Shown piece after piece: positions 1-27,428 of a DNA stretch of 38,469 nucleotides. Location: assembly GCA_021107915.1 (NCBI GenBank), contig JAIORY010000219.1, positions 1-38,469 on the forward strand, in the 5' to 3' direction. Position 1 is the stretch's first letter, and every line of letters starts with the position of its first letter. The stretch is from Bacteroidales bacterium. GTDB lineage: Bacteria; Bacteroidota; Bacteroidia; Bacteroidales; JAIORY01. A program made the translations under genes and the position numbers. The notes beneath the pieces are model-generated. The model was not told the origin of the DNA and made no database searches. It saw nothing but the letters and a program-made list of their open reading frames with translations.

Positions 1-116
1 TATTGGTTGACGATGTAATAACTACCGGAGCAACAATAGAAGCCTGCGCTCAGGCCTTGCATAAAATCCCTGACATAAAGATAAGTGTGGTTTCTATTGG
101 GGTAGCGGTGAATTAG
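1..116 (+). CDS. ComF-family phosphoribosyltransferase, C-terminal fragment (5' end outside window)
   Basis: Frame 3 reads LVDDVITTGATIEACAQALHKIPDIKISVVSIGVAVN*. This contains the PRPP-binding VDDVxTTGAT loop of ComF/PRTase proteins. Stop TAG at 114-116. Confidence 0.55.
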   Translation, partial: LVDDVITTGATIEACAQALHKIPDIKISVVSIGVAVN

Positions 117-145
117 ATTTTGAGACTTTTGAGAATAAAAGAGAA

Positions 146-169
146 AAATCCTCCCGTAAGGGAGGATTT
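146..169. terminator. GC-rich hairpin AAATCCTCCC-GTAA-GGGAGGATTT downstream of the comF-like gene
   Basis: Perfect 10-bp stem with a 4-nt loop, 30 nt after the stop. Same TCCTCCC/GGGAGGA hairpin family as the flanks of the leuS insertion (34470-34488). Confidence 0.5.
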
Positions 170-170
170 G

Positions 171-264
171 CAGAATAAGATTGTAATTGTTTTTTTACAT
201 TTATCATTATTGAGGAAATGTAGAATTTAAAATAATAAATGACAAACTTACTTCTAAATCTAAA
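171..264. repeat. Island junction repeat R1, copy a
   Basis: CAGAATAAGATTGTAATTG...AAATAATAAATGACAAACTT recurs at 3611-3705. The first ~80 bp are identical apart from a 1-nt difference in a T-run. Confidence 0.9.
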
Positions 265-316
265 GTTCAAATATTAACAAGATAATTATTTAGAATTGTT
301 ATAAACTATGCTATAA

Positions 317-334
317 GTTCACAATATTGTGAAC
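317..334. promoter_or_regulatory. Perfect 18-bp palindrome GTTCACAATATTGTGAAC, candidate operator for the downstream HTH protein
   Basis: Perfect dyad 44 nt upstream of the ATG at 378 and directly abutting a TAAATTTG -7 box at 342-349. Confidence 0.5.
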
Positions 335-341
335 ATTATAT

Positions 342-349
342 TAAATTTG
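342..349 (+). promoter_or_regulatory. Bacteroidota-type -7 promoter box TAAATTTG (TAnnTTTG)
   Basis: Matches the TAnnTTTG consensus, 29 nt upstream of the start codon at 378. Confidence 0.4.
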
Positions 350-377
350 CATTAATTATTATGAAAAATAGAGAAAG

Positions 378-1481
378 ATGAAAACGACAGAAAACACAAT
401 TCCACTTTTAGCTACACATCCGGGGAAAGTTCTTTTAGATGAAATTAAAGCAAATGATTTTACTCAAAGTGATTTTGCAAAGAAAATTGGTTTAAAGAAA
501 AGTCAGTTAAATGAAATTATAAAACGGAAAAGAAATATTAATGCTGAGTTGGCTATTTTATTAGAAAAAACATTGAATATTGATGCAGAATATTGGTTAG
601 AAATTCAAAAGAATTATGATTTAGACAAAGCTCGAATTAATATTAAGAATCAGCAAAGATTAGAAGCAATTGAGCAATGGAAATTTATAGAAAACAAAAT
701 TGCCACTTCATTTTTAAAGAAAGAAAAGGTATTAAGTGGAGATCCCATTGAAGATATAATTGCCGTCAAGAAAATATATAATGTGCAAAATTTTGAAGAA
801 TTAGCCAAATTAAATGCAAAACCTGCTTACGCCAGATTTAGAAAATCAACAAAATTAGAGATTGATCCAATTAATATTATTGGGTGGGTGAAATTACTTC
901 ACTTTAATGCAAGTCGGATATTTGTTGAAAAATTTGACTACGATAAAAAAAACGAATTAATTACAAAACTTAAACAGATTTTAAGAATAAACAAAAATAC
1001 TTTAGTGACAGTACAACTAACATTAGCAGATTTTGGAATTAAATTAATCTATCAGAGAAAAGGTGACAAAACACCTGTTGATGGAATCTCTTTTTGGAGT
1101 AATGGTAGCCCGGCAATTGGCATGTCTTTAAGACATAGTAGATTGGATAATTTTGCTTTTACACTTTTTCATGAATTAGGTCATATTTTTGAACATCTTC
1201 CAAATAACAATAAAGCCGAATTTGTTGATTTAATTGCTTCCAAAGAACAAAAAGATTACAAGAAATCAAAAGAAGAGAAAGAAGCTGATTTATTTGCACA
1301 AAAAAATATGATCGAATCTAAAAATTGGAAAGTTTTCTTTCTTAATCAAAGATTTGATGATAGAAGTATTATAGAATTTGCAAAAGAAAATGAAATTCAC
1401 CCATGTATTGTCAGGGGAAGAATTTGTTTTACGACAGGTTTTTATAAAGCAAAAACATCAATTGATTATTCAATTTATTAA
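378..1481 (+). CDS. Fusion protein: HigA/XRE-family HTH domain plus ImmA/IrrE-type (M78, COG2856) zinc metallopeptidase domain
   Basis: N-terminus HPGKVLLDEI...SQLNEIIKRKRNINAELAILLEKTLNIDAEYWLEIQKNYDL is a HigA-type HTH. C-terminal part carries the HEXXH motif FHELGHIFEH followed by EKEADLFA, as in ImmA/IrrE peptidases. Confidence 0.8.
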   Translation: MKTTENTIPLLATHPGKVLLDEIKANDFTQSDFAKKIGLKKSQLNEIIKRKRNINAELAILLEKTLNIDAEYWLEIQKNYDLDKARINIKNQQRLEAIEQWKFIENKIATSFLKKEKVLSGDPIEDIIAVKKIYNVQNFEELAKLNAKPAYARFRKSTKLEIDPINIIGWVKLLHFNASRIFVEKFDYDKKNELITKLKQILRINKNTLVTVQLTLADFGIKLIYQRKGDKTPVDGISFWSNGSPAIGMSLRHSRLDNFAFTLFHELGHIFEHLPNNNKAEFVDLIASKEQKDYKKSKEEKEADLFAQKNMIESKNWKVFFLNQRFDDRSIIEFAKENEIHPCIVRGRICFTTGFYKAKTSIDYSIY

Positions 1482-1570
1482 AATAATAAATTACAAACTT
1501 TGTTCAAACATCTTCCAAATCCAGAACTCAAAACTTGCTTCTAAATCTAAAATCTAAATTCATAAATCCC

Positions 1571-1638
1571 AAATTATCTTGCCTATTATATCTTTTTTAC
1601 ATAAGTTTGTAACATAATGTGAAGTTGAAAAATTTCAG
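1571..1638. repeat. Island promoter module R2, copy a (contains -7 box TAAGTTTG at 1602-1609)
   Basis: AAATTATCTTGCCTATTATATCTTTTTTACATAAGTTTGTAACATAATGTGAAGTTGAAAAATTTCAG is about 90% identical to 3704-3771. TTG-N20-TAAGTTTG fits the Bacteroidota promoter layout. Confidence 0.75.
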
Positions 1639-1772
1639 GTAATTAATTGCGAACTACTTTATTGGTTTTTTATAGAGAAAAACTACAATTTACTACAATC
1701 CAATTACTACAATTTATACTGATTTGTGAAAAGGATAATTTGAGTTTTTTAATATAGGTAAAAAATAATAAA

Positions 1773-3428
1773 TTGAGAAACGAAAAAAACATTAAAGACA
1801 TATTACGAGATTTGCTAAGTCAAGATTATGAAAATGAGATATTAGAATTTAAGGAGGCAAAAAACGGATATGATTTCAATAGACTCGGAAAGTATTTTTC
1901 TGCACTTTGCAATGAAGCGAATTTAAAAAATCAATCCCCTGCTTGGTTGGTTTTTGGTGTAAGAGATAAAAATAAAAAGATTATTGGCACTCAATTTAGG
2001 ACGAATAAAGCAAACCTGCATAAATTGAAAGCAGAAGTTGCAAATCACACTACCAACCGCATTACTTTTATAGAGATATATGAGTTTAACACACCAGATG
2101 GTAGAGTTGTTTTATTTGAAATTCCTACCGCTCCGAAAGGTATCCCTGTTTCATGGAAAGGCCATTATTACGGTAGAGATGGAGAAGAACTTAATGCCCT
2201 AAATCTGGAAGAAATTGAACGAATACGTATGCAATCCAACGAGGAAGATTGGAGTATTAAAATATGCAAAGGTGCTGATTTAAGAGATTTATCACAGGAA
2301 GCTATTTTAAAAGCTCGTTCTAATTTTAAAACTAAAAATCCAAATCTAAACAAAGAAATAAACAATTGGGATGATATTACATTTTTAAATAAGGCAAAAG
2401 TATGTATTAAAGGAAAAATTACTCGTGCAGCGATTTTACTGCTTGGTAAGTCTGAATCAGAACATTTCATTTCTCCTGCCACAGCTAAAATTACATGGAT
2501 ATTAAAAGACAGGGATAACATAGAAAAAGATTATGCACACTTTACCTGTCCTCTTCTTTTGAATACTGAAGAAGTTCATCAAAAAATACGAAATTTAAAA
2601 TATCGTTATTTGAAAGAAGGAACACTTTTTCCTGAAGAAGTTGATCAATTTGATTCTTACATTATTCGTGAAGCTTTGAATAATTGTATTGCACATCAAG
2701 ATTATTCTTTAGGTGGAAAAATTTCTGTAATTGAAAATGAAGATGGCAATTTGATTTTTAGTAATGCTGGTAAGTTTATTCCTGAAAGCGTCGAAGAAGT
2801 AATTATTTCTGATTCGCCTGAATATAGGTATAGAAATAAATTTTTAACAGATGCAATGGTCAACTTAAACATGATAGATAGTATCGGTAGTGGAATAAAA
2901 AAAATGTTTAATATTCAGAAAGAAAAGTTTTTTCCATTACCTGACTACGAGATAAAGAATAATAAAGTGAAGGTACGTTTTGTAGGTAAAGTAATGGATG
3001 TTAACTATGCCAGAAAATTGGTTACTATGCCAAACTTAAATTTATTGGATATCATTTTACTTGATAAAGTAGTTAAAAGAAAAACTTTATGTAATATTGA
3101 AATTAAACATTTGAAAAATAAAAATTTAATAGAAGGACGAAAACCTAATTTTTATGTTTCTATGTCTGTGGCAAAGGCTACTGGAGAACAGAGTGATTAT
3201 ATTAAACAGAGAGGTATTGATGATGAATATTGTCAAAAGATGATTTTGGATTATTTGAAAGAATTTGGCAAAGGAAAAAGTTCGGATTTTAAAAAAGTTC
3301 TTATTGACAAGTTATCAAATTCATTAAATGAAAAAAGGAAAGTTAATAAAATTAGAAATGTTTTACAGAAGCTTAGAAAAGATGGAAAAATAGTTATTAA
3401 GGGAAAGTATTGGAAAATTGCTATTTAG
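1773..3428 (+). CDS. AlbA_2 (Schlafen-like DNA-binding) plus HATPase_c_4 plus C-terminal wHTH protein, usually annotated as putative transcriptional regulator or RecG-like ATP-binding protein
   Basis: N-terminus ENEILEFKEAKNGYDF...WLVFGVRDKNKKIIG fits the AlbA_2 pattern. The central part IIREALNNCIAHQDYSLGGKISV...IDSIGSGIKKM fits HATPase_c_4. TTG start with no in-frame ATG upstream of the domain. Confidence 0.7.
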   Translation: MRNEKNIKDILRDLLSQDYENEILEFKEAKNGYDFNRLGKYFSALCNEANLKNQSPAWLVFGVRDKNKKIIGTQFRTNKANLHKLKAEVANHTTNRITFIEIYEFNTPDGRVVLFEIPTAPKGIPVSWKGHYYGRDGEELNALNLEEIERIRMQSNEEDWSIKICKGADLRDLSQEAILKARSNFKTKNPNLNKEINNWDDITFLNKAKVCIKGKITRAAILLLGKSESEHFISPATAKITWILKDRDNIEKDYAHFTCPLLLNTEEVHQKIRNLKYRYLKEGTLFPEEVDQFDSYIIREALNNCIAHQDYSLGGKISVIENEDGNLIFSNAGKFIPESVEEVIISDSPEYRYRNKFLTDAMVNLNMIDSIGSGIKKMFNIQKEKFFPLPDYEIKNNKVKVRFVGKVMDVNYARKLVTMPNLNLLDIILLDKVVKRKTLCNIEIKHLKNKNLIEGRKPNFYVSMSVAKATGEQSDYIKQRGIDDEYCQKMILDYLKEFGKGKSSDFKKVLIDKLSNSLNEKRKVNKIRNVLQKLRKDGKIVIKGKYWKIAI

Positions 3429-3542
3429 AATATTTTTAAATAAAATTAGCTATACTTTTAGAAAAACACTATTGGCATTCCTATATAAAAAACATGTAAT
3501 ATAAAGGTAAACAGTAAAATAAGGGGCTATTCAAATGTGAAT

Positions 3543-3582
3543 AAAATTGCTATTTAGAATGTGTTTAGAATAAATTTAGTCA
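3543..3582. repeat. Duplicate of the 3' tail of the 1773-3428 gene (remnant of a lost paralogous cassette?)
   Basis: AAAATTGCTATTTAGAAT (last codons KIAI plus stop) at 3414-3431 recurs exactly at 3543-3560. Similarity continues for about 20 more nt. Confidence 0.6.
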
Positions 3583-3610
3583 TTTTAAAGTTTTGTTATA
3601 TAAAAATTTA

Positions 3611-3705
3611 CAGAATAAGATTGTAATTGTTTTTTTTACATTTATCATTATTGAGGAAATGTAGAATTTAAAATAATAAATGACAAACTTTCTTCTAAAT
3701 CTTAA
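3611..3705. repeat. Island junction repeat R1, copy b
   Basis: Direct repeat of 171-264, here contiguous with R2. Confidence 0.9.
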
Positions 3706-3771
3706 ATTATCTTGCTTATTATATCTTTTTTACATAAGTTTGTAACAGAATTTGAAGTTGAATAATTTCAG
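3704..3771. repeat. Island promoter module R2, copy b (contains -7 box TAAGTTTG at 3735-3742)
   Basis: Same 68-nt module as 1571-1638, about 100 nt upstream of the TIR gene ATG. Confidence 0.75.
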
Positions 3772-3840
3772 ATATACTAATCTTAACAGATATGCAAAGC
3801 AATAGCTGCTCAGAAGTAGCTGGCACAAATTAGAAAACCT

Positions 3841-4692
3841 ATGGAAAACCAAGAATTTAAATACGATATAGCATTATCATTCGCAGGTGAAGACCGCGAG
3901 TACGTAAACAAAGTAGCAAATTTGTTAAAAGAAAAAGACGTCAAAGTTTTTTATGACTTGTTTGAAGAAGAAGATTTATGGGGGAAGGATTTGGGTGTTC
4001 ATTTTGACTTTGTATATCGAAAAAGCGCACGATATTGTATACCATTTATTTCATCTAGTTACAAAGAAAAAATTTGGACTAGTCATGAAATCAAAACTGC
4101 AATATCAAGAGCCATAGAATCCAATCACGAGTATATACTTCCTGCAAGATTTGATAACACCGAAATAGATGGCATTAGACCTACTTTAGGCTTCATTGAC
4201 CTCAGAAAAAACACACCAGAACAACTAGCCAATAAAATCTTAAAGAAGCTTGAAAAGGAACCTTCTATACCTGTAACTGAAAAAGAACAAGAAACAGATG
4301 GAAACATTTTTGCTTCAGTTTATGTCATTACATACGACCAAGTGAACGTTCATGAAGTATCAATAGGTGTTACAATGACGAATGTAATGAAGGAACATAG
4401 ATATTTTAATGAACCAAGCTTCTTGCTATCTGAGGCTGTGATTGGCAATGCAGACGCCTTCTATTTAATAGATAAAATCGAACCAATTAAATTCCCTATA
4501 AAACTTGAATATGGTGAGGTAGCAAAAGCTTCTTATAGATTAAAATATGAATCAAAAGATGGTTTTTGGGAAAAACTTTCAAAAGACGCATTTTTCCAAG
4601 CTGAAGTAACAACTACTGTTGGAGAAAGGTATAAATCAAATAAGGTAAAAGCCCAAATGGTATTAGATTCTTTTGGAATGATAAAAAAATAA
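3841..4692 (+). CDS. TIR-domain protein (TIR_2/ThsB-like N-terminal domain, about 140 aa) with an unassigned C-terminal domain of about 130 aa
   Basis: YDIALSFAGEDREYVNKVANLLKEKDVKVFYD...IPFISSSYKEKIWTSHEIKTAI is a bacterial TIR signature, including the conserved Glu (E83 in WTSHE). I cannot assign residues ~155-283 to any family. Confidence 0.8.
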   Translation: MENQEFKYDIALSFAGEDREYVNKVANLLKEKDVKVFYDLFEEEDLWGKDLGVHFDFVYRKSARYCIPFISSSYKEKIWTSHEIKTAISRAIESNHEYILPARFDNTEIDGIRPTLGFIDLRKNTPEQLANKILKKLEKEPSIPVTEKEQETDGNIFASVYVITYDQVNVHEVSIGVTMTNVMKEHRYFNEPSFLLSEAVIGNADAFYLIDKIEPIKFPIKLEYGEVAKASYRLKYESKDGFWEKLSKDAFFQAEVTTTVGERYKSNKVKAQMVLDSFGMIKK

Positions 4693-4793
4693 AACTTGCA
4701 CTAACACCTAACCATATAAAAATCTCAAAAGAATTTATAGAGGAAAAATATATAAAATTTGCTATCATTTTTCATAAAATATTTAATGCGTAA

Positions 4794-7415
4794 TCATCTC
4801 CCCACCACACAAGTCTTTTTATAATGCCTCACTTTGCCATTCAGATCAAAGATTTCAAAGTAAATAATATAAATTCCGATATTGGCTTTTTCATTATTTT
4901 GATTGATACCATCCCACGAAAAACCTCCTTTTGTTCCAAGCAATTCGTTTCTGATTAGGTTTTTTGTTAGTTTTCCGGCGGAGTTAAAAATTGTAATATT
5001 TGCTGTGTAACCGGAACTTTCAAATTTGTAATTTATATTTAAAATATCATCAAAGCCATCTGCATTTGGTGAGAAAATTTCAGGGGAAATACTTACCGGA
5101 TCTTCAATATCTTCTTCTTTGGTAAATTGAGAATTTTCAAAAGCCGGAGTTCCAAAACCGCTTTGCTGTGAAGCCGAATGCCAGTTGGTTTTATCATTTG
5201 CAGGTCGGTTATAATTAATTCTTTCCAGAGCAACGCCATCATAAAAATTAAGCAAAGGAAACTGCATTTCTTCGGAGTATTCAAAAATATCAATAATAAG
5301 ATCGTTTTTATTTTTTATTAATGAAATTCCTTTGTCGTTATTATACGAAGGAAAAGATTCAACCTTAATAAAACCATCGGGATTGGAAGTGTAAAATTGT
5401 TGTTTAACGATATCAGGATTTTTGCTAAGAACAAAATAATCTTCAGGAAATATTAATTTCCCATTTTCGCTTATGTTTTTCGTGATGGTGTCGGGAGGAT
5501 TTGGAGGGGTTTTCTTTACGGAAGAAATTTTAAGGTTTTTGAGATCAATAATTTTATTTGAACGATTGTAAATCTCAACATAATCCACGCCATCAGCAAG
5601 CGGATTAAACAAAATTTCGTTTATCACAATATCGTTATTTTCTGTTGTTTGAGGAATGCCGAGCCGGGTATTGCTATAAGTTTCCAAAGGTATTCCTGAG
5701 CAATTTAAAATATCTTCAACAATATCCAAAGTATAAATAATTCCCTCACTCATATCTGTTGAAAACTCCAAAATCACACTTTTAAAACCTTGTGAATTTA
5801 TTATAATATTTTGCGGTTTTCCAATGCCGTTATCAATTTTATAAGCATTAATGTTTAACACAGAAAGGCTGTCCATGTTTTGGTCGAAAGAAAGCTCAAT
5901 TGTTTTTGGATTTATGTAAATAGTATTATCAATTTTCGGAGGAATATCTTCGATAGAAAAAACAGAATTTTCGCTTCCGGGAGTGCCGCCATAATCGTTG
6001 TTTGCAGCTTTCCAGTTTTCATTTCCACCGCAAGGATTAAAAGGATCAATTTGTTCTAACGACCATCCACCATCTTCTTTTTCAGGATTATTGTACCAGT
6101 CATCGGAATATGAAATGTATGAAATTAAGTTGCCGTTTTGATTTCGTAAAATTATTTCCTGTCCGGAATTTGTTAAAGAAAAACTCGAAAAACCATAAAA
6201 ATCACCAAAGAAAGAAAACAAAGTTGCGGCAGTTTCTTTTCCGATAATCAAGTATTCTCCCGGCTCAATAAAAACATCTGAAAAAACCTTTTCACTCGTC
6301 CCGATAATCAACATCCAATTATTAAGATCAATGGGCAGGGGAGAGGTATTGTACAATTCGAGGTATTCATATTCCGGCATGTTGACCGGAGGACTGGGAT
6401 CAGCCATAATCTCGTTTATCACGATGTCGTTTCGCTGAGCGATATAATACGAAAATTCAATATTTACCGGCGAAATAGTGTTTTCTGAAAAGTCTTTTAT
6501 ACCGGAGATATTTAAAATATTTATCTCTCCGTTGGGAAAAGATGATGAAAATTCAAGGTGAACAAGCGAGGGATCAGATTCATTTCTTGTCGCATTTTCC
6601 GGTTTACCGATATTATTATTTGCTGTGTAATTATTTATGTTTTCTGAAGATAACCGATCTACTCCTTCCGAAAATTTAATATCAAGTTTGTTTTGCGAAA
6701 TTGTGTTTACAGAAACTACTTCCGGTGGAATGGTATCAATTAAAATATCACCAACATAAAAATTATCGAAATACATTTTACTGCTGTTGCTTGAGGTATA
6801 TTTGCAGAAAACCCCAAAAGAATTTGTGGTATTTATTTCGTTATCGGTGCCTTCAGTTTCAGCCTGAAAATTATTTCCTCCGGCAGGATCAATAAAAATT
6901 TTCCATAAAGCATTTTCGTTTCGTGTAATTTTTACGGATATTTCAAAAGAACCGGACAATAATCCTTCAGTACCCCGACAAACCGAAATATGCTCATCAC
7001 CGGCTTGTCTGAACAACTCAATTGCATCATCTGAACCTGATTCACCAAATTGCAAATAATATCCGTTTAAAGGCAAATCAAGATCAGTTTGATCAGAAAC
7101 CAAATATACACGTGCGTAATTATTTGCTGATGGGCTGAAAGAAAGTTTTATCCAAAAACGCCATTCGGTTTCATTAAGCCCGGTATTTGGTGTAGATAAA
7201 AAGGATTCTCCGGCATCTGTTGCATTCAGTTGTAATTGAAGATCAGGATTGATAATAAAACTCTCTGGATTGCCTGACCAAAGTGGATCATTAGTAAAAT
7301 CTCCATCCGAGAAATCGTCATTTATTTGAGCCATCAGGGAAACTGAAAAAAGAAAAGAGATTAATAAAAAAAATTGTTTTTTGGGAAATCGAAGGTAGAT
7401 TTGGATATTATTCAT
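4794..7415 (-). CDS. Secreted lamin-tail-domain (LTD x2) protein with a gliding-motility/T9SS type-B C-terminal sorting domain
   Basis: N-terminal signal/TM segment. Two INEI(M/L)..P......EY(L/V)E(L/I)YN LTD cores. C-terminus FSPNADGFDDIL...WDGINQNNEKANIGIYIIYFEI...VVGR resembles the CHU_C/TIGR04131 domain. Confidence 0.6.
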   Translation of the reverse strand: MNNIQIYLRFPKKQFFLLISFLFSVSLMAQINDDFSDGDFTNDPLWSGNPESFIINPDLQLQLNATDAGESFLSTPNTGLNETEWRFWIKLSFSPSANNYARVYLVSDQTDLDLPLNGYYLQFGESGSDDAIELFRQAGDEHISVCRGTEGLLSGSFEISVKITRNENALWKIFIDPAGGNNFQAETEGTDNEINTTNSFGVFCKYTSSNSSKMYFDNFYVGDILIDTIPPEVVSVNTISQNKLDIKFSEGVDRLSSENINNYTANNNIGKPENATRNESDPSLVHLEFSSSFPNGEINILNISGIKDFSENTISPVNIEFSYYIAQRNDIVINEIMADPSPPVNMPEYEYLELYNTSPLPIDLNNWMLIIGTSEKVFSDVFIEPGEYLIIGKETAATLFSFFGDFYGFSSFSLTNSGQEIILRNQNGNLISYISYSDDWYNNPEKEDGGWSLEQIDPFNPCGGNENWKAANNDYGGTPGSENSVFSIEDIPPKIDNTIYINPKTIELSFDQNMDSLSVLNINAYKIDNGIGKPQNIIINSQGFKSVILEFSTDMSEGIIYTLDIVEDILNCSGIPLETYSNTRLGIPQTTENNDIVINEILFNPLADGVDYVEIYNRSNKIIDLKNLKISSVKKTPPNPPDTITKNISENGKLIFPEDYFVLSKNPDIVKQQFYTSNPDGFIKVESFPSYNNDKGISLIKNKNDLIIDIFEYSEEMQFPLLNFYDGVALERINYNRPANDKTNWHSASQQSGFGTPAFENSQFTKEEDIEDPVSISPEIFSPNADGFDDILNINYKFESSGYTANITIFNSAGKLTKNLIRNELLGTKGGFSWDGINQNNEKANIGIYIIYFEIFDLNGKVRHYKKTCVVGR

Positions 7416-7570
7416 AATAGTGTGAGCTGTTAGATAAAAATTAAAAAACCGAAAAATGTATTAATAACAGAATTTAAATTTTGTTCTTTTCAACTTTAAA
7501 TAAAGGATAATAAGGATTTAACAAAATTATCAACGATAATAATTATGAATAATATGTAAATATACTATTT

Positions 7571-8643: not shown

Positions 8644-10374
8644 ATGAAAAAAATCTTATTAACATTTAGTTTATTTCTTGCGATAGGAATAAGTATTAAT
8701 TCCTATGCATGTACTAATTACCTGATTACTAAAGGCGCATCAGTTGATGGTTCAACGATGATCTCTTATGCTGCAGATTCTCATGTCCTTTTCGGAGAAC
8801 TATATCACTGGCCTTCTGCCACATACCCCGAAGGTGCAATGATGGACATTTATGAATGGGATACAGGTGAATATCTGGGTCAGATTGAGCAAGTTAGCGA
8901 AACATTTAATGTTATTGGAAACATGAATGAGTATCAAGTTGCCATTGGAGAAACAACTTATGGCGGTCGTTCAGAGCTGAGTAAACAACCCGGTGCAATT
9001 ATGGATTACGGAAGTCTTATGTTTGTTGCTTTGCAAAGATCAAAATCAGCACGCGAAGCTATTAAAATCACAGCCGAGCTAATGGAAAGATATGGTTATT
9101 ACAGCTCTGGTGAGTCTTTTTCGGTTTCCGATAAAAATGAAGTATGGATAATGGAACTTATTGGAAAAGGCAAAGAAGAAAAAGGTGCTGTCTGGGTTGC
9201 CAGAAGAGTACCTGATGGTTATGTTTGTGCTCATGCTAATCAGGCAAGGATAACAACTTTTCCTCTTGAAAACAAAACAACTTCTATTTCTTCCGATAAT
9301 CTTGATATGATATTTGACAAAGATATAGAATGTGTTTATGCTGCTGATGTTATTTCTTTTGCCAGAAAAAATAGCTGGTACAAAGGAAAAGATAAATATT
9401 TCAGCTTTTCTGATACTTATGCACCGGTTGATTTTGGTGGAGCACGTTTCTGTGAAATTCGTGTTTGGACTATGTTTAATGCTGTTGCTGATGGTATGGA
9501 TCAATATTGGGATTATTGTAAAGGTCATATAAAACATGATAAAAAATATGTTGATGGCAGGAAAAATATCAATCAATATGCAACCAACAGAATGCCACTT
9601 TGGATAAAACCGGATAAAAAGGTTTCTGTTCATGATATGATGATGTTTATGAGAGATCATCTTGAAGGTACCGAGCTTGACATGAGAAAAGATATTGGTG
9701 CCGCACCATTTGAGGTTCCTTACCGATGGCGTCCTTTAACATGGAAAGTTGATGATGTAGGTTATTGTAATGAAAGAGCAACAGCTACACAGCAAACAGG
9801 ATTTTCATTTGTTACTCAGTCACGGTCATGGTTGCCTGATGAAATTGGTGGAATTTTCTGGATGAGTGTTGATGACGCTGCCAGTAGTGTTTATGTTCCT
9901 TTTTATTCAAGTATTACAAATGTGCCTCATACTTTTGAAAGAGGAAATGGAAAAATGATGGAATGGTCTGATGATGCAGCTTTTTGGGTATTTAATCAGG
10001 TAAGCAATTTTGCATACACACGCTATAACCTTATTCATCCCGAAATTGAAAAAGTACAATTTGCATTGGAAAATGAATTTATTGAATTCACAAATGCTGT
10101 TGATGCAGGTGCTTTTGAACTTCATAAAAAAGATAAAAAACTTGCTGTTGAATATCTTACAAATTACTCAATAAATCAGGGAAACCGTGTTGTTTATACA
10201 TGGAAGAAGTTATATCAACATCTTTTTATGAGGTTTATGGATGGTAATGTTAAAGAACCAAATCCGGGTAAACAAAATCCGAAACTCGAACAACCCGGCT
10301 ATGATGAAGAATGGTATCGTTTAATAATTGAAAAAACCGGAGATAGATTTAAGGTTATCGGTTCAGCGCATTAG
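8644..10374 (+). CDS. Peptidase family C69 dipeptidase (secreted), paralog 1
   Basis: Signal peptide followed by the nucleophile Cys in YACTNYLITKGASVDGSTMISY, then conserved blocks GESFSVSDKNEVWIMELIG and VWVARRVPDGYVCAHANQARI. Confidence 0.8.
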   Translation: MKKILLTFSLFLAIGISINSYACTNYLITKGASVDGSTMISYAADSHVLFGELYHWPSATYPEGAMMDIYEWDTGEYLGQIEQVSETFNVIGNMNEYQVAIGETTYGGRSELSKQPGAIMDYGSLMFVALQRSKSAREAIKITAELMERYGYYSSGESFSVSDKNEVWIMELIGKGKEEKGAVWVARRVPDGYVCAHANQARITTFPLENKTTSISSDNLDMIFDKDIECVYAADVISFARKNSWYKGKDKYFSFSDTYAPVDFGGARFCEIRVWTMFNAVADGMDQYWDYCKGHIKHDKKYVDGRKNINQYATNRMPLWIKPDKKVSVHDMMMFMRDHLEGTELDMRKDIGAAPFEVPYRWRPLTWKVDDVGYCNERATATQQTGFSFVTQSRSWLPDEIGGIFWMSVDDAASSVYVPFYSSITNVPHTFERGNGKMMEWSDDAAFWVFNQVSNFAYTRYNLIHPEIEKVQFALENEFIEFTNAVDAGAFELHKKDKKLAVEYLTNYSINQGNRVVYTWKKLYQHLFMRFMDGNVKEPNPGKQNPKLEQPGYDEEWYRLIIEKTGDRFKVIGSAH

Positions 10375-10385
10375 AATTTTAAATC

Positions 10386-10623
10386 GGACACTGATTTTTA
10401 TGATAATTATGATTACATAAGATTTTTTGATCATAAAAATCATAATTAGTGTCTGTCCATAAAGTCAATTATATTGATAAAATTTTAGATTTATGATTTA
10501 AAATTTTAGATTTAAATGTATAGAATCCGCTAATATCAACAAATTTTTAAATTTTATATCTGAATTCTAAAATCTTAAATTGTTAAAACAAAACTTTATG
10601 GACAGACACTAATTAATCAGTGT
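10386..10623. repeat. Nested palindromic intergenic element (MITE/REP-like), full copy
   Basis: Perfect 15-bp inverted repeat GTCTGTCCATAAAGT (10451-10465) / ACTTTATGGACAGAC (10593-10607). Outer pair ACACTGAT/ATCAGTGT (10388-10395 / 10616-10623). Inner arms are built of TTTAGATTTATGATTT-type units. A partial copy lies at 22248-22389. Confidence 0.8.
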
Positions 10624-10638
10624 ACCATTTTTAACATT

Positions 10639-12225
10639 ATGAAAAAAGTAACTCTTCTAATTTTATCATTTTTTCTCTCAAGCATAGTCTTCCCATGCAC
10701 AAATTTTATCGTTACCAAGGGTGCTTCCGCTGATGGGTCAACATTTTTAGCATACACTAATGATGGTGAATGGATATATCATCTTGATAAAACACCGGCT
10801 AAAAACCATAAATTCGGAGATTCTTTAGAGTTTTCAGGAAGATTTGGTGCAAAAGGTAAAATACATCAAGTATCACACACTTATGCTGTTATTGGATTTC
10901 AAATGAATGAACATCAGGTAGCTGTTGGAGAAACTACTTTTGTTGGAAGAGAAGAACTTTGGAATAAATCCAAATATCTTGAATACTGGCATTTAATGCG
11001 CTTAGCTTTAGAAAGGGCAAAAACAGCAAGAGAGGCTATAAAAATTATGACAGAATTGGTTGAACAATATGGCTACGGAAGCGAGGGAGAATCTTTTTCA
11101 ATTGCCGATCCCAATGAAGCATGGATACTCGAAATGATAGGAACAGGAGATGGCGGTGAAGGTGCTGTGTGGGTAGCTGTCAAAATCCCTGACGGATATA
11201 TTTCAGCTCATGCAAATATGGCAAGGATTGGAGAATTTTCATTAGATGATCCGGAAAATTGTTTGTATTCAGCTAATATAATTTCTTTTGCAGTTGAGAA
11301 TGGATATTACGATACTGATTCAGGTGAGCCGTTTCGATTTAATGAGGCATACTGTCCTTCTACTCCCGAGCGTTTAAAATATTGTGAATCCAGAGTTTGG
11401 AGTTTGTTTAACAGAGCAGCACCATCAAAAAACCTTTCAAGTGATTATTGCCGTGGAGTTAAAAATACCGAAAGATATCCATTATTCATTAAGCCTGATA
11501 AAAAAATTAAACTGGAAAATGTTATGGATCTTATCAGAGATCATTATGAAGGAACTGATTTCGATATGACTAAAGGCATTGATGCCGGTCCTTTCGGATC
11601 ACCAAGCAGATGGGGTCCACTTTCGTGGGAAAATGATTCGCTAAAATACTCCTGGGAAAGACCAATTTCTATATTCAATTCTGCATTTTCATATATCGCA
11701 CAATTGCGATCATGGTTGCCCAATGAGCTTGGTGGGATTGCATGGTTCGGAGTGGATGATACTTTTTTTTCATGTTATTTCCCTGTTTATTGTGGAGTAA
11801 CTGAAATATCTGAACCTTTTACAAAAGGTGATATCCGTAACTTTTCATGGGAGTCAGCTTGGTGGACATTTAATTTTGTTTCCAATTTTTCCAATCTTAA
11901 ATATTCTTATATGAAAAAGGATATTCAAAAAGTTCAACATAAACTTGAATCAAAATTTATTTCCGATCAGGATTCTATTACAGAGATTGCCTTGAATTTG
12001 AATGAAGAAGAGCGAATTAAATTTCTCACAGAATATTCATGTAATCAAGGGAAACTGGCTCACAAAGAATGGGTTGAATTGGCAGAGTTTTTGATAATGA
12101 AATATAATGATGGATATTTAAAAAATGAAAATGGTAAAATAACGTCTCCCGGATATCCTGATGAGTGGAAACAACAAATGATAAATATTTATCCTGAGAA
12201 ATTTAATATTAATCGGAACCGGTAA
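10639..12225 (+). CDS. Peptidase family C69 dipeptidase (secreted), paralog 2
   Basis: FPCTNFIVTKGASADGSTF nucleophile block, GESFSIADPNEAWILEMIG, VWVAVKIPDGYISAHANMARI. Colinear with paralog 1. Confidence 0.8.
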   Translation: MKKVTLLILSFFLSSIVFPCTNFIVTKGASADGSTFLAYTNDGEWIYHLDKTPAKNHKFGDSLEFSGRFGAKGKIHQVSHTYAVIGFQMNEHQVAVGETTFVGREELWNKSKYLEYWHLMRLALERAKTAREAIKIMTELVEQYGYGSEGESFSIADPNEAWILEMIGTGDGGEGAVWVAVKIPDGYISAHANMARIGEFSLDDPENCLYSANIISFAVENGYYDTDSGEPFRFNEAYCPSTPERLKYCESRVWSLFNRAAPSKNLSSDYCRGVKNTERYPLFIKPDKKIKLENVMDLIRDHYEGTDFDMTKGIDAGPFGSPSRWGPLSWENDSLKYSWERPISIFNSAFSYIAQLRSWLPNELGGIAWFGVDDTFFSCYFPVYCGVTEISEPFTKGDIRNFSWESAWWTFNFVSNFSNLKYSYMKKDIQKVQHKLESKFISDQDSITEIALNLNEEERIKFLTEYSCNQGKLAHKEWVELAEFLIMKYNDGYLKNENGKITSPGYPDEWKQQMINIYPEKFNINRNR

Positions 12226-12930: not shown

Positions 12931-13890
12931 TTACACTTTTAATAAAAATGGATGATAGTCGCCTTTAATACCAATGGGTTTGGCATTTCTGATGTAGTGG
13001 ACTGTTTCTATGGTATTTCTGGATTCTTCTATGCCATAACCGTTTCCCTTTAAAATTTTCTGGTAACTAATTGTATGAAGATCGGTAAAACCGCCACTAA
13101 ATTCTATTTCTTCGTTTGCAACTGTTGCCGAGCGATATGTTCTTTGTCCTTGTTTTGCTAATTCTGTTGGAATGAATTTTGGGTCAAGGCTTAAAAACCA
13201 TCGTACTCTTGCTTTTTCGGTTTGTATGAAACCGGCGGCAGTATTTGGTTTTGAATAATGAACGATATTTTGTTTTACTTTTCCAAAAACATTTGTGATC
13301 ATATCAAAAAAATGTACTCCAATATTTGTTGCAACACCACCTGATTTTTCAATATCTCCTTTCCACGACATAAAATACCAATGTCCGCGGCTTGTAATGT
13401 AGGTCAAATCAATATCATAGATTTTATCTTTGGGTCCATTATCAATTTTTTCTTTTAATTTTATTATTGAAGGATGAAGTCTTAACTGTAAAATGTTATA
13501 GATTTTTTTCCCGGTTTCCTGTTCTATTTCCTGAAGTGCATCAACATTCCATGGGTTAAGCACTAATGGTTTTTCACAAATGGCATCTGCGTCATTACGG
13601 AGAGATAAACGAATATGAGCATCATGCAGATAATTAGGAGAACAGATACTTACATAATCAATTTTTCTTTTACCTTGCCTTCTGAGTTTATCTAAATGCC
13701 GGTCGAATCTTTCAGGTTCTGTAAAGAAATCAGCTTTCGGGAAATAACTGTCGATAATTCCAACACTATCAAATTTATCAAGAGCTGCTACAAGATCGTT
13801 ATTTGTATCTTTTATTGCTTTCATGTGGCGTGGGGCGATATAGCCGGCTGCGCCTATGAGAGCGAAGTTTTTTTGGTTGTGTGGTGACAT
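12931..13890 (-). CDS. Gfo/Idh/MocA-family oxidoreductase (WbpB-like sugar-nucleotide dehydrogenase)
   Basis: N-terminal Rossmann motif FALIGAAGYIAPRHMKAI and EKPL block (ICEKPLVLN). Sits in a polysaccharide locus. Confidence 0.7.
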   Translation of the reverse strand: MSPHNQKNFALIGAAGYIAPRHMKAIKDTNNDLVAALDKFDSVGIIDSYFPKADFFTEPERFDRHLDKLRRQGKRKIDYVSICSPNYLHDAHIRLSLRNDADAICEKPLVLNPWNVDALQEIEQETGKKIYNILQLRLHPSIIKLKEKIDNGPKDKIYDIDLTYITSRGHWYFMSWKGDIEKSGGVATNIGVHFFDMITNVFGKVKQNIVHYSKPNTAAGFIQTEKARVRWFLSLDPKFIPTELAKQGQRTYRSATVANEEIEFSGGFTDLHTISYQKILKGNGYGIEESRNTIETVHYIRNAKPIGIKGDYHPFLLKV

Positions 13891-13896
13891 GTTATG

Positions 13897-13937
13897 TTTG
13901 AGTTTTGAGTTGTCAGTTATCGGTTATCGGTTATTGG
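13897..13937. repeat. Heptamer tandem array (GTTATCG/GTTGTCA units), left flank of four-helix-bundle gene 1
   Basis: GTTGTCAGTTATCGGTTATC (13909-13928) is the perfect reverse complement of 14346-14365. The array fills the 40-nt gap to the next gene. Confidence 0.9.
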
Positions 13938-14299
13938 TTTGTTTTCCAGTTTTTTCTTACATATTCAATAAATGCAAAAATTTGTTTTCCCAAATCATCA
14001 TATTTCTTAAAAAAAACTTTATCTTCATCCAAATTATACAGAACATCCATCATTTCAATATGAGATTGTGTTTCAAGACAATATGAATATGCATAAGTTA
14101 AAAACTTAATAAATTCATTCTTATAGATTTTTCTACCATATCCTTCAATAATATTACTTCTAACACTTTGTGCAGATCTTCTAATTTGAGAACCTAATTC
14201 ATAAAGTTCATATTTAGGCATTTTAAAGGATAAGTGATGTGTTTTGATTGCCATTTCAAAGGCATCATTATAAATATTTAAATCTCTATAACTTTTCAT
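13931..14299 (-). CDS. Four-helix-bundle protein (23S rRNA intervening-sequence protein / TIGR02436, Avd-like family), copy 1
   Basis: SYRDLNIYNDAFEMAIKTHHL...LGSQIRRSAQSVRSNIIEGYGRK...FLTYAYSYCLETQSHIEM matches the family pattern as I recall it. Confidence 0.8.
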   Translation of the reverse strand: MKSYRDLNIYNDAFEMAIKTHHLSFKMPKYELYELGSQIRRSAQSVRSNIIEGYGRKIYKNEFIKFLTYAYSYCLETQSHIEMMDVLYNLDEDKVFFKKYDDLGKQIFAFIEYVRKNWKTNQ

Positions 14300-14313
14300 T
14301 TAAATATAAATTT

Positions 14314-14380
14314 AACTGACAACTGACAACTGATAACTGACAACTGATAACCGATAACTGACAACTGACAACTGATAACA
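14314..14380. repeat. Heptamer tandem array (CTGACAA/CTGATAA/CCGATAA x9), right flank of four-helix-bundle gene 1
   Basis: Nine consecutive 7-nt units filling the whole gap between the wzc-like stop (14384) and the 4HB start (14299). Inverted relative to the left flank. Confidence 0.9.
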
Positions 14381-17667: not shown

Positions 17668-17824
17668 ACGAATTTCATTATTTGTTAGATATATATCTAT
17701 TTATATAGAATTAGCAAAAGTAAGACAAAAGTAAATTACTTTTCAAAACTATTGAAAATATTTTAAAATTGTTCAAATTTTTTACTCAAAATCGGGTGAT
17801 GGATGCTTGATACTGGAAAAAATG

Positions 17825-18072
17825 GCAAGAAGTTTCTTTCAGTCGTTCCGTGATAATGTTTTGGATGAAATGGATTTTGGTGGACGGAACTCCTTCAGAA
17901 AATCTTATTTCTATTAAAGTTATTTAGAAGTACGATTTTCTGAGCCACTCGGTTTGTGGAAAGGTGAGCAAAGAGAGATGCAATTTTTGATAGTGGTTTT
18001 GTTGGCTTGAAAAGGGCGAAGAATCTTTATGCGTTTTCAACTATATTATGCAAAAAGCTTATTTGCGTTTTC
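17825..18072. repeat. About 245-nt intergenic repeat, copy A (immediately 3' of miaB)
   Basis: Roughly 80% identical by eye and colinear with 19489-19728, in the same orientation. Conserved hairpin TCAGAAAATC (17895-17904) / GATTTTCTGA (17934-17943). Confidence 0.85.
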
Positions 18073-18084
18073 AATCATTGCAAA

Positions 18085-19416
18085 TTAACCACCAACACTC
18101 TCCCCAATCAATGTTGCTGTTGTACACTTAGTAATTTTAACTTTTACATAATCTCCGGGTTTAAAGTTTTCTTTTGGAAATACACAAACTTTATTTTCAC
18201 TGTTTCTACCAAAAAGTTCTTGATCTGATTTTTTTGAAGTTCCTTCAATCAAAACATTGAATGTCTTTCCCAAATCATTTAAATTACTTTGGTGAGAAAG
18301 TTTTTGTTGAATGTCGATTATTTCTTTCAGACGATGGCTTTTGGTTTCTTTCGGAACATCATCTTTTAATTTTTTCGCAGCCATTGTCCCGGGACGTTCA
18401 GAATATTTAAACATAAAAGCGTAATAATATTCAACTTCATTCATTATTGAAAGAGTTTCCTGATGATCATCCTCTGTTTCGGTGCAGAAACCACTAATAA
18501 TATCGGTTGAAATAGTACAACCGGGAATAATTTTTTTTATTGCTTCGATACGATTCATGTACCATTCACGGGTATATTTTCTGTTCATCAACTTAAGAAT
18601 TTTTGTGCTTCCTGATTGAATAGGTAAATGAATAGAATTACAAATATTCTCATATTTTGCAATAATTTTTAGTAATTCATCTGAAATATCTTTTGGATGT
18701 GAAGTTGCAAATCTCACTCTTAACAAAGGATTAACCAAAGCTACTTTTTCGAGCAATCCGGCAAAATTCAATTTATATTCGTTTTCCCATCTATATGAAT
18801 TTACATTTTGTCCGAGCAAAGTAACCTCGCGGTATCCATCATCAAAAAGCTGTTGCGCTTCGTTAACGATGCTTTCCGGATCACGACTTCTTTCTTTTCC
18901 TCTTGTGTAAGGAACAACGCAATATGAGCAATAATTCTGACAACCTCGCATTATAGAAATAAAAGCAGAAACACCGTTAGTGCTTATTCTTACGGGATTA
19001 ATATTTGCATAAGTTTCTTCTTCCGAAAGAATAACATTTGCTGCTTTTTGTCCTGCTTCCACAGTATTTATTAATTTTGGAAGATCACGATAAGAATCAG
19101 GACCGGCAATAAGATCAATAATTAATTCTTCTTCTAATAATTTATCTTTCAGTCGCTCAGCCATACAACCCAAAACACCTATTTTAAGATTTGGATTTTT
19201 TCTTTTTTGAGCATTTAGTTCTTTTAGTCTTTTTCTAACTCTTTGTTCGGCATTTTCTCTGATAGAGCAGGTGTTAATAAAAATTGTATCAGCATTAGTT
19301 ATATCATCTGTTATCCGGAAATCATTTTCCAGCATTATTGAACTAACAATCTCGCTGTCGGAGAAATTCATCTGACAGCCGTAAGTTTCTATATATAGAT
19401 TTTTGTTTTTTGACAT
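18085..19416 (-). CDS. miaB: tRNA-i6A37 methylthiotransferase
   Basis: [11 protein letters not shown]-terminus, radical-SAM CxxxCxxC (CQNYCSYC) and a C-terminal TRAM domain. Confidence 0.9.
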
Positions 19417-19438: not shown

Positions 19439-19488
19439 GAGTTTTTTGCAATCCTTATTAAAAAGTTTTTCCTTTATAGCAAAGAGTT

Positions 19489-19728
19489 TCTTTCAGTCGT
19501 TCCGTGTTAGTGTTTTGGAAGAAATGAATTTTTGCAATGCGGAACTCCCTCAGAAAATCCTACTTCAATAAAAGTTATTTAGAAGTATTATTTTCTGAGC
19601 CATTCGGTTTGTAATAAAGTGAACAAAGAGAGGTGAAGTTTATAATAGTGGTTTGGTTGGCTTGAAACTCGCGAAAGAATCGTTATACGTTTTCAACCAA
19701 ACTATGTAAATAGCTTTTTAGCGTATTC
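19489..19728. repeat. About 245-nt intergenic repeat, copy B (5' of miaB, upstream of topA)
   Basis: Direct repeat of 17825-18072. Keeps the TCAGAAAAT/ATTTTCTGA hairpin and a second stem, GTTTGGTTG...CAACCAAAC. Confidence 0.85.
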
Positions 19729-22244: not shown

Positions 22245-22247
22245 CTG

Positions 22248-22389
22248 ATGAAATTTTAGATTTATGATTTATGATTTTAGATTTTTATTTATCAATCTAC
22301 TGATAATAAGCAATATTTTAAAATCTTAAATCTGAATTCTTAAATCTAAAATTGTTTGAACAAGACTTTATGGACAGACTCTAATTAAT
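22248..22389. repeat. Palindromic intergenic element, partial copy
   Basis: About 75% identical by eye to 10476-10617, including ACTTTATGGACAGAC (22365-22379) and CTAATTAAT. It lacks the left GTCTGTCCATAAAGT end and starts right after the topA stop. Confidence 0.75.
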
Positions 22390-26213: not shown

Positions 26214-26768
26214 TTGAAACCCGATAAAATCATATTAGGCATCGACCCAGGCACAAATATTATGGGTTACGGAATAATCCACAATAAAAATAATAAGATT
26301 GAACTTATTACCATGGGGGTTATAAAATTAGGAAAATATTCTAATCATGCCTTAAAACTAAAGAAAATTTTTGAAAGAGTATTAGCATTAATCAAAGAAT
26401 ATAAACCGGACGAACTGGCAATTGAGGCTCCGTTTTTTGGAAAGAATGTGCAGTCGATGCTTAAACTCGGGCGGGCACAGGGAGTTGCGATGGCTGCCGC
26501 ATTATATCAGGACGTGCCAATATTTGAATATTCGCCTAAAAAAATTAAACAATCGATTACCGGAAATGGAAATGCTTCAAAAGAACAGGTGGCAGCTATG
26601 CTTATGAGTCTTATAAAAATCACAGAAGCTCCGGAATTTCTCGATGCTACTGATGCTTTGGCTGCGGCTGTTTGTCATTATTTCCAAAAGAATATTGGTG
26701 ATGATGGAGATAAATATACCGGATGGAAGAGTTTTGTTAATAAGAATCCGGGAAGGGTGAAGAAATAA
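26214..26768 (+). CDS. ruvC: Crossover junction endodeoxyribonuclease RuvC
   Basis: [31 protein letters not shown] and [12 protein letters not shown] catalytic blocks. TTG start. Confidence 0.85.
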
Positions 26769-26794
26769 GTGAATGATTGAGTGACTTGTGGAGC

Positions 26795-26939
26795 TAATTG
26801 TAATTAATCGTAATTGATGGTAATTAGTTGTAATTAATTGTAATTGATGGTAATTAATGGTAATTGGTTGTAATTAATTGTAATTGATGGTAATTAATGG
26901 TAATTGGTTGTAATTAATGGTAATTGGTTGTAATTTGAT
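26795..26939. repeat. Decamer tandem array (AATTNNNNGT x about 14), left flank of four-helix-bundle gene 2
   Basis: Strict 10-nt periodicity (aattgatggt aattaatggt aattggttgt ...). GTAATTAATGGTAATTGGTT (26909-26928) matches the reverse complement of 27365-27384 at 19 of 20 positions. Confidence 0.9.
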
Positions 26940-27296
26940 TTATTGTTTTGGACCAATTGTTTTTATATAATTATTAATTTTTATACCAATTATTTCTAAT
27001 TTGTTTAATAACTCATTGGAAACATCGTTTGAGATTAATTTTCGATTTTTAGCTTTTGTTATCCATGTTTTAGTTTCAAATAGCGAACCTCGTGCATAAT
27101 AACTAAAATTTTTTCTTTCCTTGTAATGATATCTACCGATGCCTTCGCTTAAATTTGCTGCAATAGAGTCTGCTGAACGGACAAGTTGTTTTCCTGAAGT
27201 ATCTTTGTCAAAGTAATCCCATTTAATAACATTGGAATAAACTAATTCACCCAAGTCCATTGCAAGATTGTAAACATTAAAGTCTTCTAATTTCAT
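26940..27296 (-). CDS. Four-helix-bundle protein (23S rRNA IVS protein / TIGR02436 family), copy 2
   Basis: FNVYNLAMDLGELVYS...GKQLVRSADSIAANLSEGIGRYHYKERKNFSYYARGSLFETKTWI. Start preferred at MKLEDF (27296) rather than the ORF-track start at 27353. Confidence 0.8.
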   Translation of the reverse strand: MKLEDFNVYNLAMDLGELVYSNVIKWDYFDKDTSGKQLVRSADSIAANLSEGIGRYHYKERKNFSYYARGSLFETKTWITKAKNRKLISNDVSNELLNKLEIIGIKINNYIKTIGPKQ

Positions 27297-27353
27297 TGTT
27301 AATATATTGTTATAATTAGTAAAAAAAATGATTGATTTTGTTGTAACTGCCAT

Positions 27354-27428
27354 AAATTACGTGTAACCAATTACCATAAATTACGTGTAGCAAATTACTA
27401 CAAATTACAGCTTAGCTAAATTACCATA
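27354..27428. repeat. Right flank of four-helix-bundle gene 2 (ATAAATTACGTGTA / CAAATTAC units), inverted relative to the left array
   Basis: AACCAATTACCATAAATTAC (27365-27384) is the inverted partner of 26909-26928. ATAAATTACGTGTA occurs twice. Confidence 0.85.

Follow-up and report, generated by a model that had tools for sequence, protein, structure and literature searches.

A three-gene islet between comF and an LTD gene

The 38,469-nucleotide (nt) contig JAIORY010000219.1, filed at NCBI as 'MAG: Bacteroidales bacterium' (GCA_021107915.1; MAG, metagenome-assembled genome) and analysed here in its entirety as the window, carries three same-strand genes between the end of a comF-type phosphoribosyltransferase gene and a convergent gene for a secreted LTD protein (Table 1). 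A first-pass annotation, made from the sequence by itself, had proposed that these genes form one accessory defence cassette array built from reused junction and promoter modules. Its domain assignments agree with the Pfam profile matches: gene 1 encodes an XRE-type helix–turn–helix (HTH) domain fused to an M78 (ImmA/IrrE) metallopeptidase (HTH_3, 9e-10; Peptidase_M78, 7e-6), gene 2 an AlbA_2 domain and an HATPase_c_4 domain (SLFN_AlbA_2, 2.3e-15; HATPase_c_4, 3.4e-10) with a C-terminal region beyond, and gene 3 a TIR domain (TIR_2, 9e-15), and the right flank carries the LTD domain. The comF-like left flank is likewise borne out by 86.6% identity between bases 3-121 and the end of a 229-aa open reading frame (ORF; Pribosyltran plus DZR_2) in a relative, L020 (L numbers denote fetched loci).

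A second assembly, L001 (ENA ERZ26872897), encodes the three proteins at 100% identity and in the same order, and its copies of the junction modules A and B described below, together with the intergenic stretches compared, are also 100% identical. The G+C content of the islet is 0.22-0.33, against 0.30-0.37 in the flanks, a slight dip with no clear foreign signature. No recombinase, transposase or integrase was found among the window proteins or in the 10-kb flanks of the related loci L019 and L020, the sequence upstream of comF lying beyond the contig. An Rfam scan of positions 1-5000 returned a single match, to Phe_leader, which fell below threshold (30 bits; cut-off, 55) and which we judged to be a chance hit. 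The hairpin at the left edge of the islet is a 96% match to L019rc 9573-9600 and L020rc 10424-10452, where it lies at most 170 nt downstream of the LTD stop codon, and a further variant of it stands directly at the LTD stop in L020 and L021. As near-copies of this hairpin follow the LTD stop in both L019 and L020, its position in the window suggests that the islet sits between LTD and its former terminator region.

Table 1. Features of the comF–LTD interval, in window coordinates.
Feature	Position	Strand	Description
comF-type phosphoribosyltransferase gene, 3′ end	1-115	+	Left core flank; truncated by contig start
Terminator-like hairpin	146-169	-	G+C-rich, T-tail on minus strand; terminator scan
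Junction J1	166-282	+	Full A (166-267) and B 3′ remnant (262-282); B promoter core absent
Native promoter/operator of higBA-type operon	283-360	+	Shares homology with higB upstream sequence in L015, L018, L026 and L029
Scar of HigB-like gene deletion	361-377	+	About 310 nt lost; endpoints in AAAATAG(A) microhomology; 6-codon mini-ORF left
Gene 1	378-1481	+	ORF call
Junction J2	1478-1669	+	A 3′ part (1478-1508), low-complexity stretch resembling a repetitive extragenic palindrome (1531-1575), long B form (1563-1669)
Gene 2 segment	1760-3591	+	ORF and its own 3′ flank; 82% nt identity to L007 3582-5436
Gene 2	1773-3428	+	ORF call
Gene 2 tail and downstream flank	3408-3606	+	Present as a gene-less remnant in L019 and L020
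Junction J3	3606-3774	+	Full A (3606-3708, without hairpin) and short B form (3696-3774)
Gene 3	3841-4692	+	ORF call
LTD gene	4794-7415	-	Convergent right core flank; secreted protein, Pfam LTD 7e-28 plus CHU_C (type IX secretion)

Recurring junction modules at each cargo boundary

Two modules, which we call A and B, recur in front of the three genes. The two full copies of A are about 97% identical with one indel and have a 60-nt identical stretch in common, and a 31-nt piece of the module is present three times in the window. The 20-mer on which the first-pass annotation had centred its proposal occurs, without mismatches, at 230-249, 1481-1500 and 3671-3690, position 1481 being the final base of the gene 1 stop codon, exactly as it had been described; 0.18 matches were expected by chance, none of 100 shuffles reached four matches and the one further match in the window carries three mismatches. 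The copies of B at 1563-1641 and 3696-3774 are 91% identical, and the 68-nt core noticed in front of genes 2 and 3 is 94% identical. The repeats are longer than had been described. Each of these B copies contains a promoter-like motif, TTG-N20-TAAGTTTG (1579-1609 in J2 and 3712-3742 in J3), followed by a conserved leader of about 50 nt. Motifs of this type number 11 in the window versus 3.1 in shuffled sequence, and we take the motif to fit the Bacteroidota -33/-7 promoter consensus (-33 TTG, -7 TAnnTTTG). In J1, alignment to the B module of L029 identifies 262-282 as a remnant of the 3′ end of B, and the stretch 244-272 is similar to 1531-1559. Because pieces of A and pieces of B (or the B remnant) are found at each of them, all three junctions are A+B composites.

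Part of J2 has a wider distribution. The segment 1538-1575 had been read as the reverse complement of one arm of a palindromic family seen at 10.4 and 22.3 kb, and this holds for 1542-1575, a low-complexity stretch of the TAAATCT type that is 85% complementary to 10481-10514 and 22252-22284; it is the sole part of any junction that belongs to a dispersed repeat. J2 is 87% identical to L019rc 7302-7428. Outside this locus, A and B were not found in the window, L019 or L020, nor in any of the roughly 80 kb searched from the lineage. A 23-mer from A had two single matches in GTDB representative genomes (Sedimentibacter and Bacteroides), neither with extended homology and both attributable to chance. 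As exact patterns, a 24-mer from A was absent from JGI metagenomes and from viral contigs, and a 27-mer from B was absent from viral contigs.

Single-stranded DNA folding of J2 (z = +2.26) and J3 (z = -0.66) against shuffled sequences revealed no structure of the kind expected of attC-like hairpins. We also considered an invertible promoter, because the 20-mer holds the reverse complement of the -7 box region of B (ACAAACTT / AAGTTTGT). This idea found no support: the arms measure just 8-10 bp, and six of six assembled B copies have the same orientation.

Cargo of the islet and of the same locus in relatives

The first-pass annotation had called for a survey of what occupies the comF/LTD locus in related genomes. 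In three related metagenomic genomes, compared at 82-92% nucleotide identity and oriented as the window, the locus holds other cargo or remnants; a metagenome scan with the LTD protein, of which no identical entry is on record, found that flank at 82-91% identity in L019-L021. In L020, comF is followed by a TetR/ABC-transporter operon and then, before LTD, by remnants only, namely the end of a 555-aa gene, 153 nt duplicated from the LTD 3′ end, the tail of gene 2 with its flank, and hairpins. L019 carries the TetR/ABC operon, a B module, a higB′-higA′ pair whose HigA has 24% identity to gene 1, an A 3′ part with a B module, the 555-aa gene, remnants and LTD; the protein of this 555-aa gene has no Pfam, PADLOC or NCBIfam match. 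The third genome, in which L029/L030 were joined to L021 through 386 nt at 100% identity, presents B, the higBA promoter, a higB-higA pair (92% nucleotide identity to gene 1), the 20-mer with the 3′ part of A and B, a SIR2-like gene, a hairpin and LTD. The SIR2-like cargo matches PADLOC SIR2 at 4e-9, its Pfam SIR2_2 match being below threshold.

These comparisons uphold two parts of the earlier proposal, namely that junction and promoter modules are reused, since the same A+B fronts other cargo at the same locus in L019 and L029/L030/L021, and that the interval is accessory, strain-variable and occupied by defence-type genes, since the cargo of the relatives differs and the PADLOC and Pfam matches are of that type. 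Across the three genomes, six B copies have a mean column identity of 70% over a stretch that starts at the -33 box and reaches about 50 nt beyond the -7 box, with the boxes largely retained, and in the six-copy alignment the homology of B stops at a different point for each cargo.

Decay is visible at the locus in the HigB scar of the window, in the fusion of the gene 2 tail with a piece of LTD (L019 and L020) and in the broken SIR2-like gene. The last (L029 1730-2347; L021rc 1-733) has a premature stop in L029, whereas 11 nt are deleted from it in L030/L021, different inactivations in two near-identical strains. At L019rc 9226-9378 and L020rc 9996-10148, the 153-nt duplicate of the LTD 3′ end is fused to the final 20 nt of a lost gene 2 copy, and because of this fusion we consider that illegitimate recombination has occurred at the hotspot in the past.

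Gene 1 has an intact HELGH motif and matches PADLOC PD-Lambda-2_B at 1.1e-41 over residues 13-358; it also scores 61.5 bits against the TIGR02607 antidote_HigA equivalog (cut-off, 47.7), with weak matches to PADLOC capP (2e-6) and capH (2e-3). The promoter/operator region in front of it contains a perfect 18-nt palindrome, GTTCACAATATTGTGAAC, at 317-334 that is unique in the window. In five of the five nearest groups of gene 1 homologues (89, 85, 83 and 82% identical, plus the divergent L019 copy), an ORF of 107-125 aa with weak HigB-like Pfam matches (E 2e-5 to 6e-3) ends 7 nt upstream. Global alignment of the window with L029 places a deletion here: the window keeps the operon promoter/operator and then jumps to the final 16 nt before the gene 1 ATG. 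The interval 117-377 contains no ORF for a HigB-like gene, and tblastn with the HigB-like proteins of the relatives found no counterpart in the window (best E, 0.24). We infer from these alignments that gene 1 is probably an orphan HigA-M78 antitoxin/repressor, one that would still autoregulate through the palindrome at 317-334 after the loss of its HigB-like partner.

Several described systems resemble gene 1 in part. Its architecture, a HigA-like HTH with a C-terminal peptidase, is that of component B of PD-lambda-2, and its relatives keep the upstream HigB-like gene, but component A has been deleted in the window and genes 2 and 3 have no match to PD-Lambda-2_C (P4-antitoxin-like). In Escherichia coli the B protein of PD-lambda-2 is toxic alone and is rescued by the HigB-like A protein (PMC9519451, Vassallo et al. 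2022), whereas gene 1 persists without a partner. From HigBA type II toxin–antitoxin (TA) loci it retains the HigA antitoxin HTH (TIGR02607), the cognate HigB being absent from the operon. With CapH/CapP regulators it has in common a HTH repressor and an M78 peptidase, here fused in one protein; unlike in such a regulatory arrangement, its operator-like palindrome does not recur in the promoters of the other cargo, the B modules containing no site within three mismatches of GTTCACAATATTGTGAAC, which leaves room for a different operator. Downstream of a higB-higA(M78) pair that is 85% identical to gene 1, L026 (1735-2776) carries an AvcD-like dCTP deaminase split into a kinase-like and a deaminase ORF (PADLOC dCTPase, 1.7e-21 and 2.8e-19).

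Gene 2 is one of a highly conserved family with more than 100 members, which are about 553 aa in length and 65-82% identical to it. In three of the three nearest homologue groups (82, 72 and 70%; L007-L014), the gene lies inside a type I restriction–modification (R-M) operon with the order hsdM-hsdS-X-hsdR, between hsdS and hsdR. Nucleotide homology to L007 begins 13 nt ahead of the start codon and extends 160 nt beyond the stop codon, and the 3′ flank includes a degenerate second copy of the final codons of the gene at 3543-3576. The tail and flank, 3408-3606 (to 3616 for L020), are 84.5-84.8% identical to L019rc 9378-9576 and L020rc 10148-10355. No hsdM, hsdS or hsdR was among the domains found on the 38-kb contig, and a PDB sequence search with gene 2 returned no match. 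Schlafen-ATPase-DNA-binding proteins have been found in tight association with R-M systems (PMC13462974, published in 2026); gene 2 shares its architecture with the clusters of Fig. 6 of that paper, and its nearest relatives sit between hsdS and hsdR as just described, but gene 2 stands alone on the contig. It is best read, on these comparisons, as a restriction-associated Schlafen-ATPase that would have been separated from a type I R-M operon and orphaned here.

Gene 3 encodes a TIR domain at residues of about 7-140 and a conserved all-beta C-terminal domain at about 155-283. Its family comprises about 2,400 matches, the best-scoring 120 of which range from 237 to 309 aa, with coverage of the query at 82% or more. 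In the family alignment W79 is invariant and E83 is present in at least 90% of the sequences (W-x3-E), making it a putative catalytic glutamate. The AlphaFold model (mean confidence, pLDDT, 78) matches the TIR domains of PdTIR, BtpA and AbTIR in Foldseek, and PDB sequence matches support the TIR fold; the C-terminal domain has no confident structural match. In PADLOC, gene 3 has matches to PDC-S66/ThsB, those to the ThsB models being weak (1.3e-7 and 2.2e-4) and covering the TIR domain alone. The two nearest homologues with readable DNA (84 and 77%) have unrelated neighbours and no modules, and searches of plasmid and viral collections gave matches at the level of the TIR domain only, with no full-length relatives. 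Gene 3 resembles Thoeris and other TIR NADases (AbTIR, PdTIR, BtpA) in its fold and in the W-x3-E glutamate E83. It differs from TIR NADases of this kind in its family-specific all-beta C-terminal domain, and from Thoeris in that no ThsA (SIR2, or transmembrane plus SLOG/Macro) and no other signal-receiving partner was found among the window ORFs of at least 100 aa. We infer that gene 3 encodes an abortive-infection effector of the TIR NADase type that works on its own and whose beta-sandwich domain may have a role in sensing or assembly.

The remainder of the contig is housekeeping in character (ribF, two C69 peptidases, polysaccharide export, topA, ruvC, queA, truB, leuS and others), with several further features. 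In the leucyl-tRNA synthetase gene (32237-35830, minus strand; 1,197 aa), a DUF559/REase_MTES_1575 domain (Vsr-like endonuclease) is present in frame at residues 341-444, where it separates the catalytic core from the editing domain, an insertion unusual for this enzyme. Two PF05635 '23S rRNA-intervening sequence protein' genes (13931-14299 and 26940-27353, both on the minus strand) are bracketed by short tandem repeat arrays in inverted orientation (13890-14379 and 26768-27384), the first made of the 7-nt units AACTGAC/AACTGAT and the second of about 17 copies of the 10-nt unit GTAATTRRTK. Between the two Peptidase_C69 genes, which are tandem paralogues (8644-10374 and 10639-12225), lies a 175-nt element (10443-10617) resembling a miniature inverted-repeat transposable element; its terminal inverted repeats are 24 nt long (TAATTAGTGTCTGTCCATAAAGTC), and a palindrome rich in TTTAGATTT is found inside it. 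A second, partial copy (22246-22389) abuts the end of topA, and the low-complexity part of the element recurs in J2 and in L019. Finally, a direct repeat of about 200 nt (17822-18020 and 19476-19675; 84-88% identical), internally palindromic, flanks a MiaB-like radical-SAM gene (18085-19416) and has a copy in L020.

Assembly of the islet and its place among known systems

Taken together, these observations make it probable that 117-4790 is a strain-variable islet of one Bacteroidales lineage: a hotspot of gene turnover that adjoins an LTD gene linked to type IX secretion at its 3′ end, holds independent, separately promoted cargo of defence type and is not a three-gene system. We favour a homology-driven hotspot because the junctions lack folding and the HigA palindrome, no recombinase lies nearby and copies of A flank 268-3605. 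Between one cargo unit and the next stands a copy of a single A+B junction specific to the locus. The junction copies and the core flanks would supply homology for unequal crossing-over and for homologous replacement between strains, by which cargo could be stacked, swapped or deleted while inheriting a ready promoter. Because near-identical A copies (166-267 and 3606-3708) flank it, the block 268-3605 may have been inserted into an A-B-TIR locus through one crossover within A; an unequal exchange between strain variants could have had the same outcome. The predicted defence role of the cargo is drawn from the PADLOC matches (PD-Lambda-2_B, PDC-S66/ThsB and SIR2) and from gene neighbourhoods.

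Some considerations weigh against this interpretation. The recombination mechanism is deduced from the layout of the repeats, no intermediate, donor or recombinase having been seen, and the comparison covers three related genomes and a single contig of a MAG, such that further copies of A or B may exist elsewhere. The term 'defence' reflects domains and neighbourhoods because none of the three proteins has an experimentally tested relative at useful identity. In addition, the cargo breakpoints lie near the ORF ends, and plain homologous exchange does not account for this in the first capture of each gene.

Two other explanations can be set beside the turnover hotspot. That the XRE-M78, AlbA_2-HATPase and TIR genes constitute one new defence system, as the first-pass annotation held in treating them as a co-functional cassette, would accord with their adjacency, common strand and uniformly defence-type domains. 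We regard it as very improbable, because each gene has its own promoter-like junction and a different conserved context elsewhere, the same locus carries other cargo in relatives, and no other sampled organism has any two of them: tblastn of the three proteins against all 34 fetched loci recovered the trio just in the same strain (L001) and no two together in another organism. The annotation had staked its reading both on co-occurrence of the genes and on modules that are not generic intergenic repeats; the former failed, the trio co-occurring in no other organism sampled, and the latter stood, the modules not having been found as generic repeats in the sequence examined. A chimeric assembly, in which co-existing strains were joined through the 60-nt identical core of module A, might be suspected from that very identity and from a Logan contig that breaks inside B. 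It is scarcely credible given that L001, from a separate ENA record, has the same order with 100% identity at junctions and in proteins, that the A copies differ at flanking positions, as expected of two real copies, and that the alternation of junction, cargo and junction is found on single contigs in relatives (L019).

More substantial is the proposal that a HigB/HigA-M78 pair makes up the invariant core of a PD-lambda-2-like modular system whose third component is interchangeable, and in which gene 1 would sense infection and control, or partner with, the cargo. The PD-Lambda-2_B match of gene 1 (1e-41) and its weak capP/capH matches fit such a core, as does the requirement of PD-lambda-2 defence for a third gene (PMC9519451). 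A same-strand gene of defence type or of no assigned type lies downstream in five of the six neighbourhoods sampled, with a transposase-like gene between in one: AlbA_2 in the window, SIR2-like in L029, the split dCTP deaminase in L026, DUF4145 in L015 and the 555-aa gene in L019. L018, however, has no downstream cargo, the HigB-like component is itself deleted in the window, and genes 2 and 3 match neither PD-Lambda-2_A nor PD-Lambda-2_C. The B modules do not carry the HigA palindrome, one and the same B is shared by two HigA alleles with only 24% identity and distinct operator-like palindromes, and close relatives of gene 2 reside in type I R-M operons that have no HigA. We consider this proposal unlikely on balance. 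Similarly doubtful is integron-like capture, whereby A+B would be the site of a recombinase encoded elsewhere and ORF-sized cassettes would land behind a promoter-bearing junction. Six different cargo units in three genomes are preceded by the same junction, the 20-mer stands at every cargo boundary in the window, homology of the cargo to other contexts begins and ends a few to tens of nucleotides from the ORFs, and recombinase-associated arrays with repetitive intergenic sequences are known in Bacteroidales (rAID-1; bioRxiv 10.1101/471110). Set against this, the window and the 10-kb flanks of L019 and L020 encode no integrase or recombinase, the junctions have no single-stranded hairpins (z = +2.3 and -0.7), their breakpoints with cargo vary between copies, and the indels and partial deletions seen among the copies are typical products of homologous or illegitimate recombination; the exact A and B patterns (24 and 27 nt) are absent from viral contigs, that of A also from JGI metagenomes, and the A 23-mer had chance matches only in GTDB. 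We keep integron-like capture at low probability because the near-ORF-precise breakpoints are otherwise unexplained. It is comparably improbable that A+B is the working part of an undescribed Bacteroidota cassette system, integrase-independent or served in trans, that would capture ORF-sized defence genes from type I R-M and TA loci and place them, fronted by a promoter, at a fixed hotspot.

The homology-driven hotspot that we favour has partial counterparts among known arrangements. Like defence islands and core-flanked hotspots, the islet is a short interval between core genes whose content varies among close relatives and includes orphaned and decaying parts, but here each cargo unit lies behind a copy of one locus-specific, promoter-bearing junction, and there are no mobile-element genes. 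Putative mobile promoters are another partial analogue. Integron arrays likewise consist of ORF-sized units delimited by a recurring junction at one chromosomal site; they differ in having IntI, attC-like hairpins and a shared Pc promoter, whereas the islet has neither of the first two and a separate promoter for every unit. Closest among the described kinds is rAID-1, a chromosomal array of Bacteroidales in which unrelated orphan genes are separated by repetitive intergenic sequences, with a structure suggesting active gene acquisition (Ross et al., bioRxiv 10.1101/471110). The islet has the same repetitive intergenic sequences between unrelated ORFs, but the defining XerD-family recombinase at the head of rAID-1 is absent from the available sequence of the window, L019 and L020, and the cargo is of phage-defence type instead of immunity genes against type VI secretion, amounts to two to three units and shows a mild G+C dip.

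It is still an open question how defence genes spread from genome to genome when no mobile elements are evident, and this locus bears on it: unrelated defence-type genes (TIR, Schlafen-ATPase, SIR2-like and HigBA/M78), each placed behind copies of one promoter-bearing linker, appear to be stacked, swapped and eroded among close relatives. The islet also offers two natural experiments, a PD-lambda-2B-like HTH-peptidase surviving without its HigB-like partner and a restriction-associated Schlafen-ATPase retained without restriction genes. Should the linker prove to do more than supply homology, it would represent a new route of gene capture in Bacteroidota.

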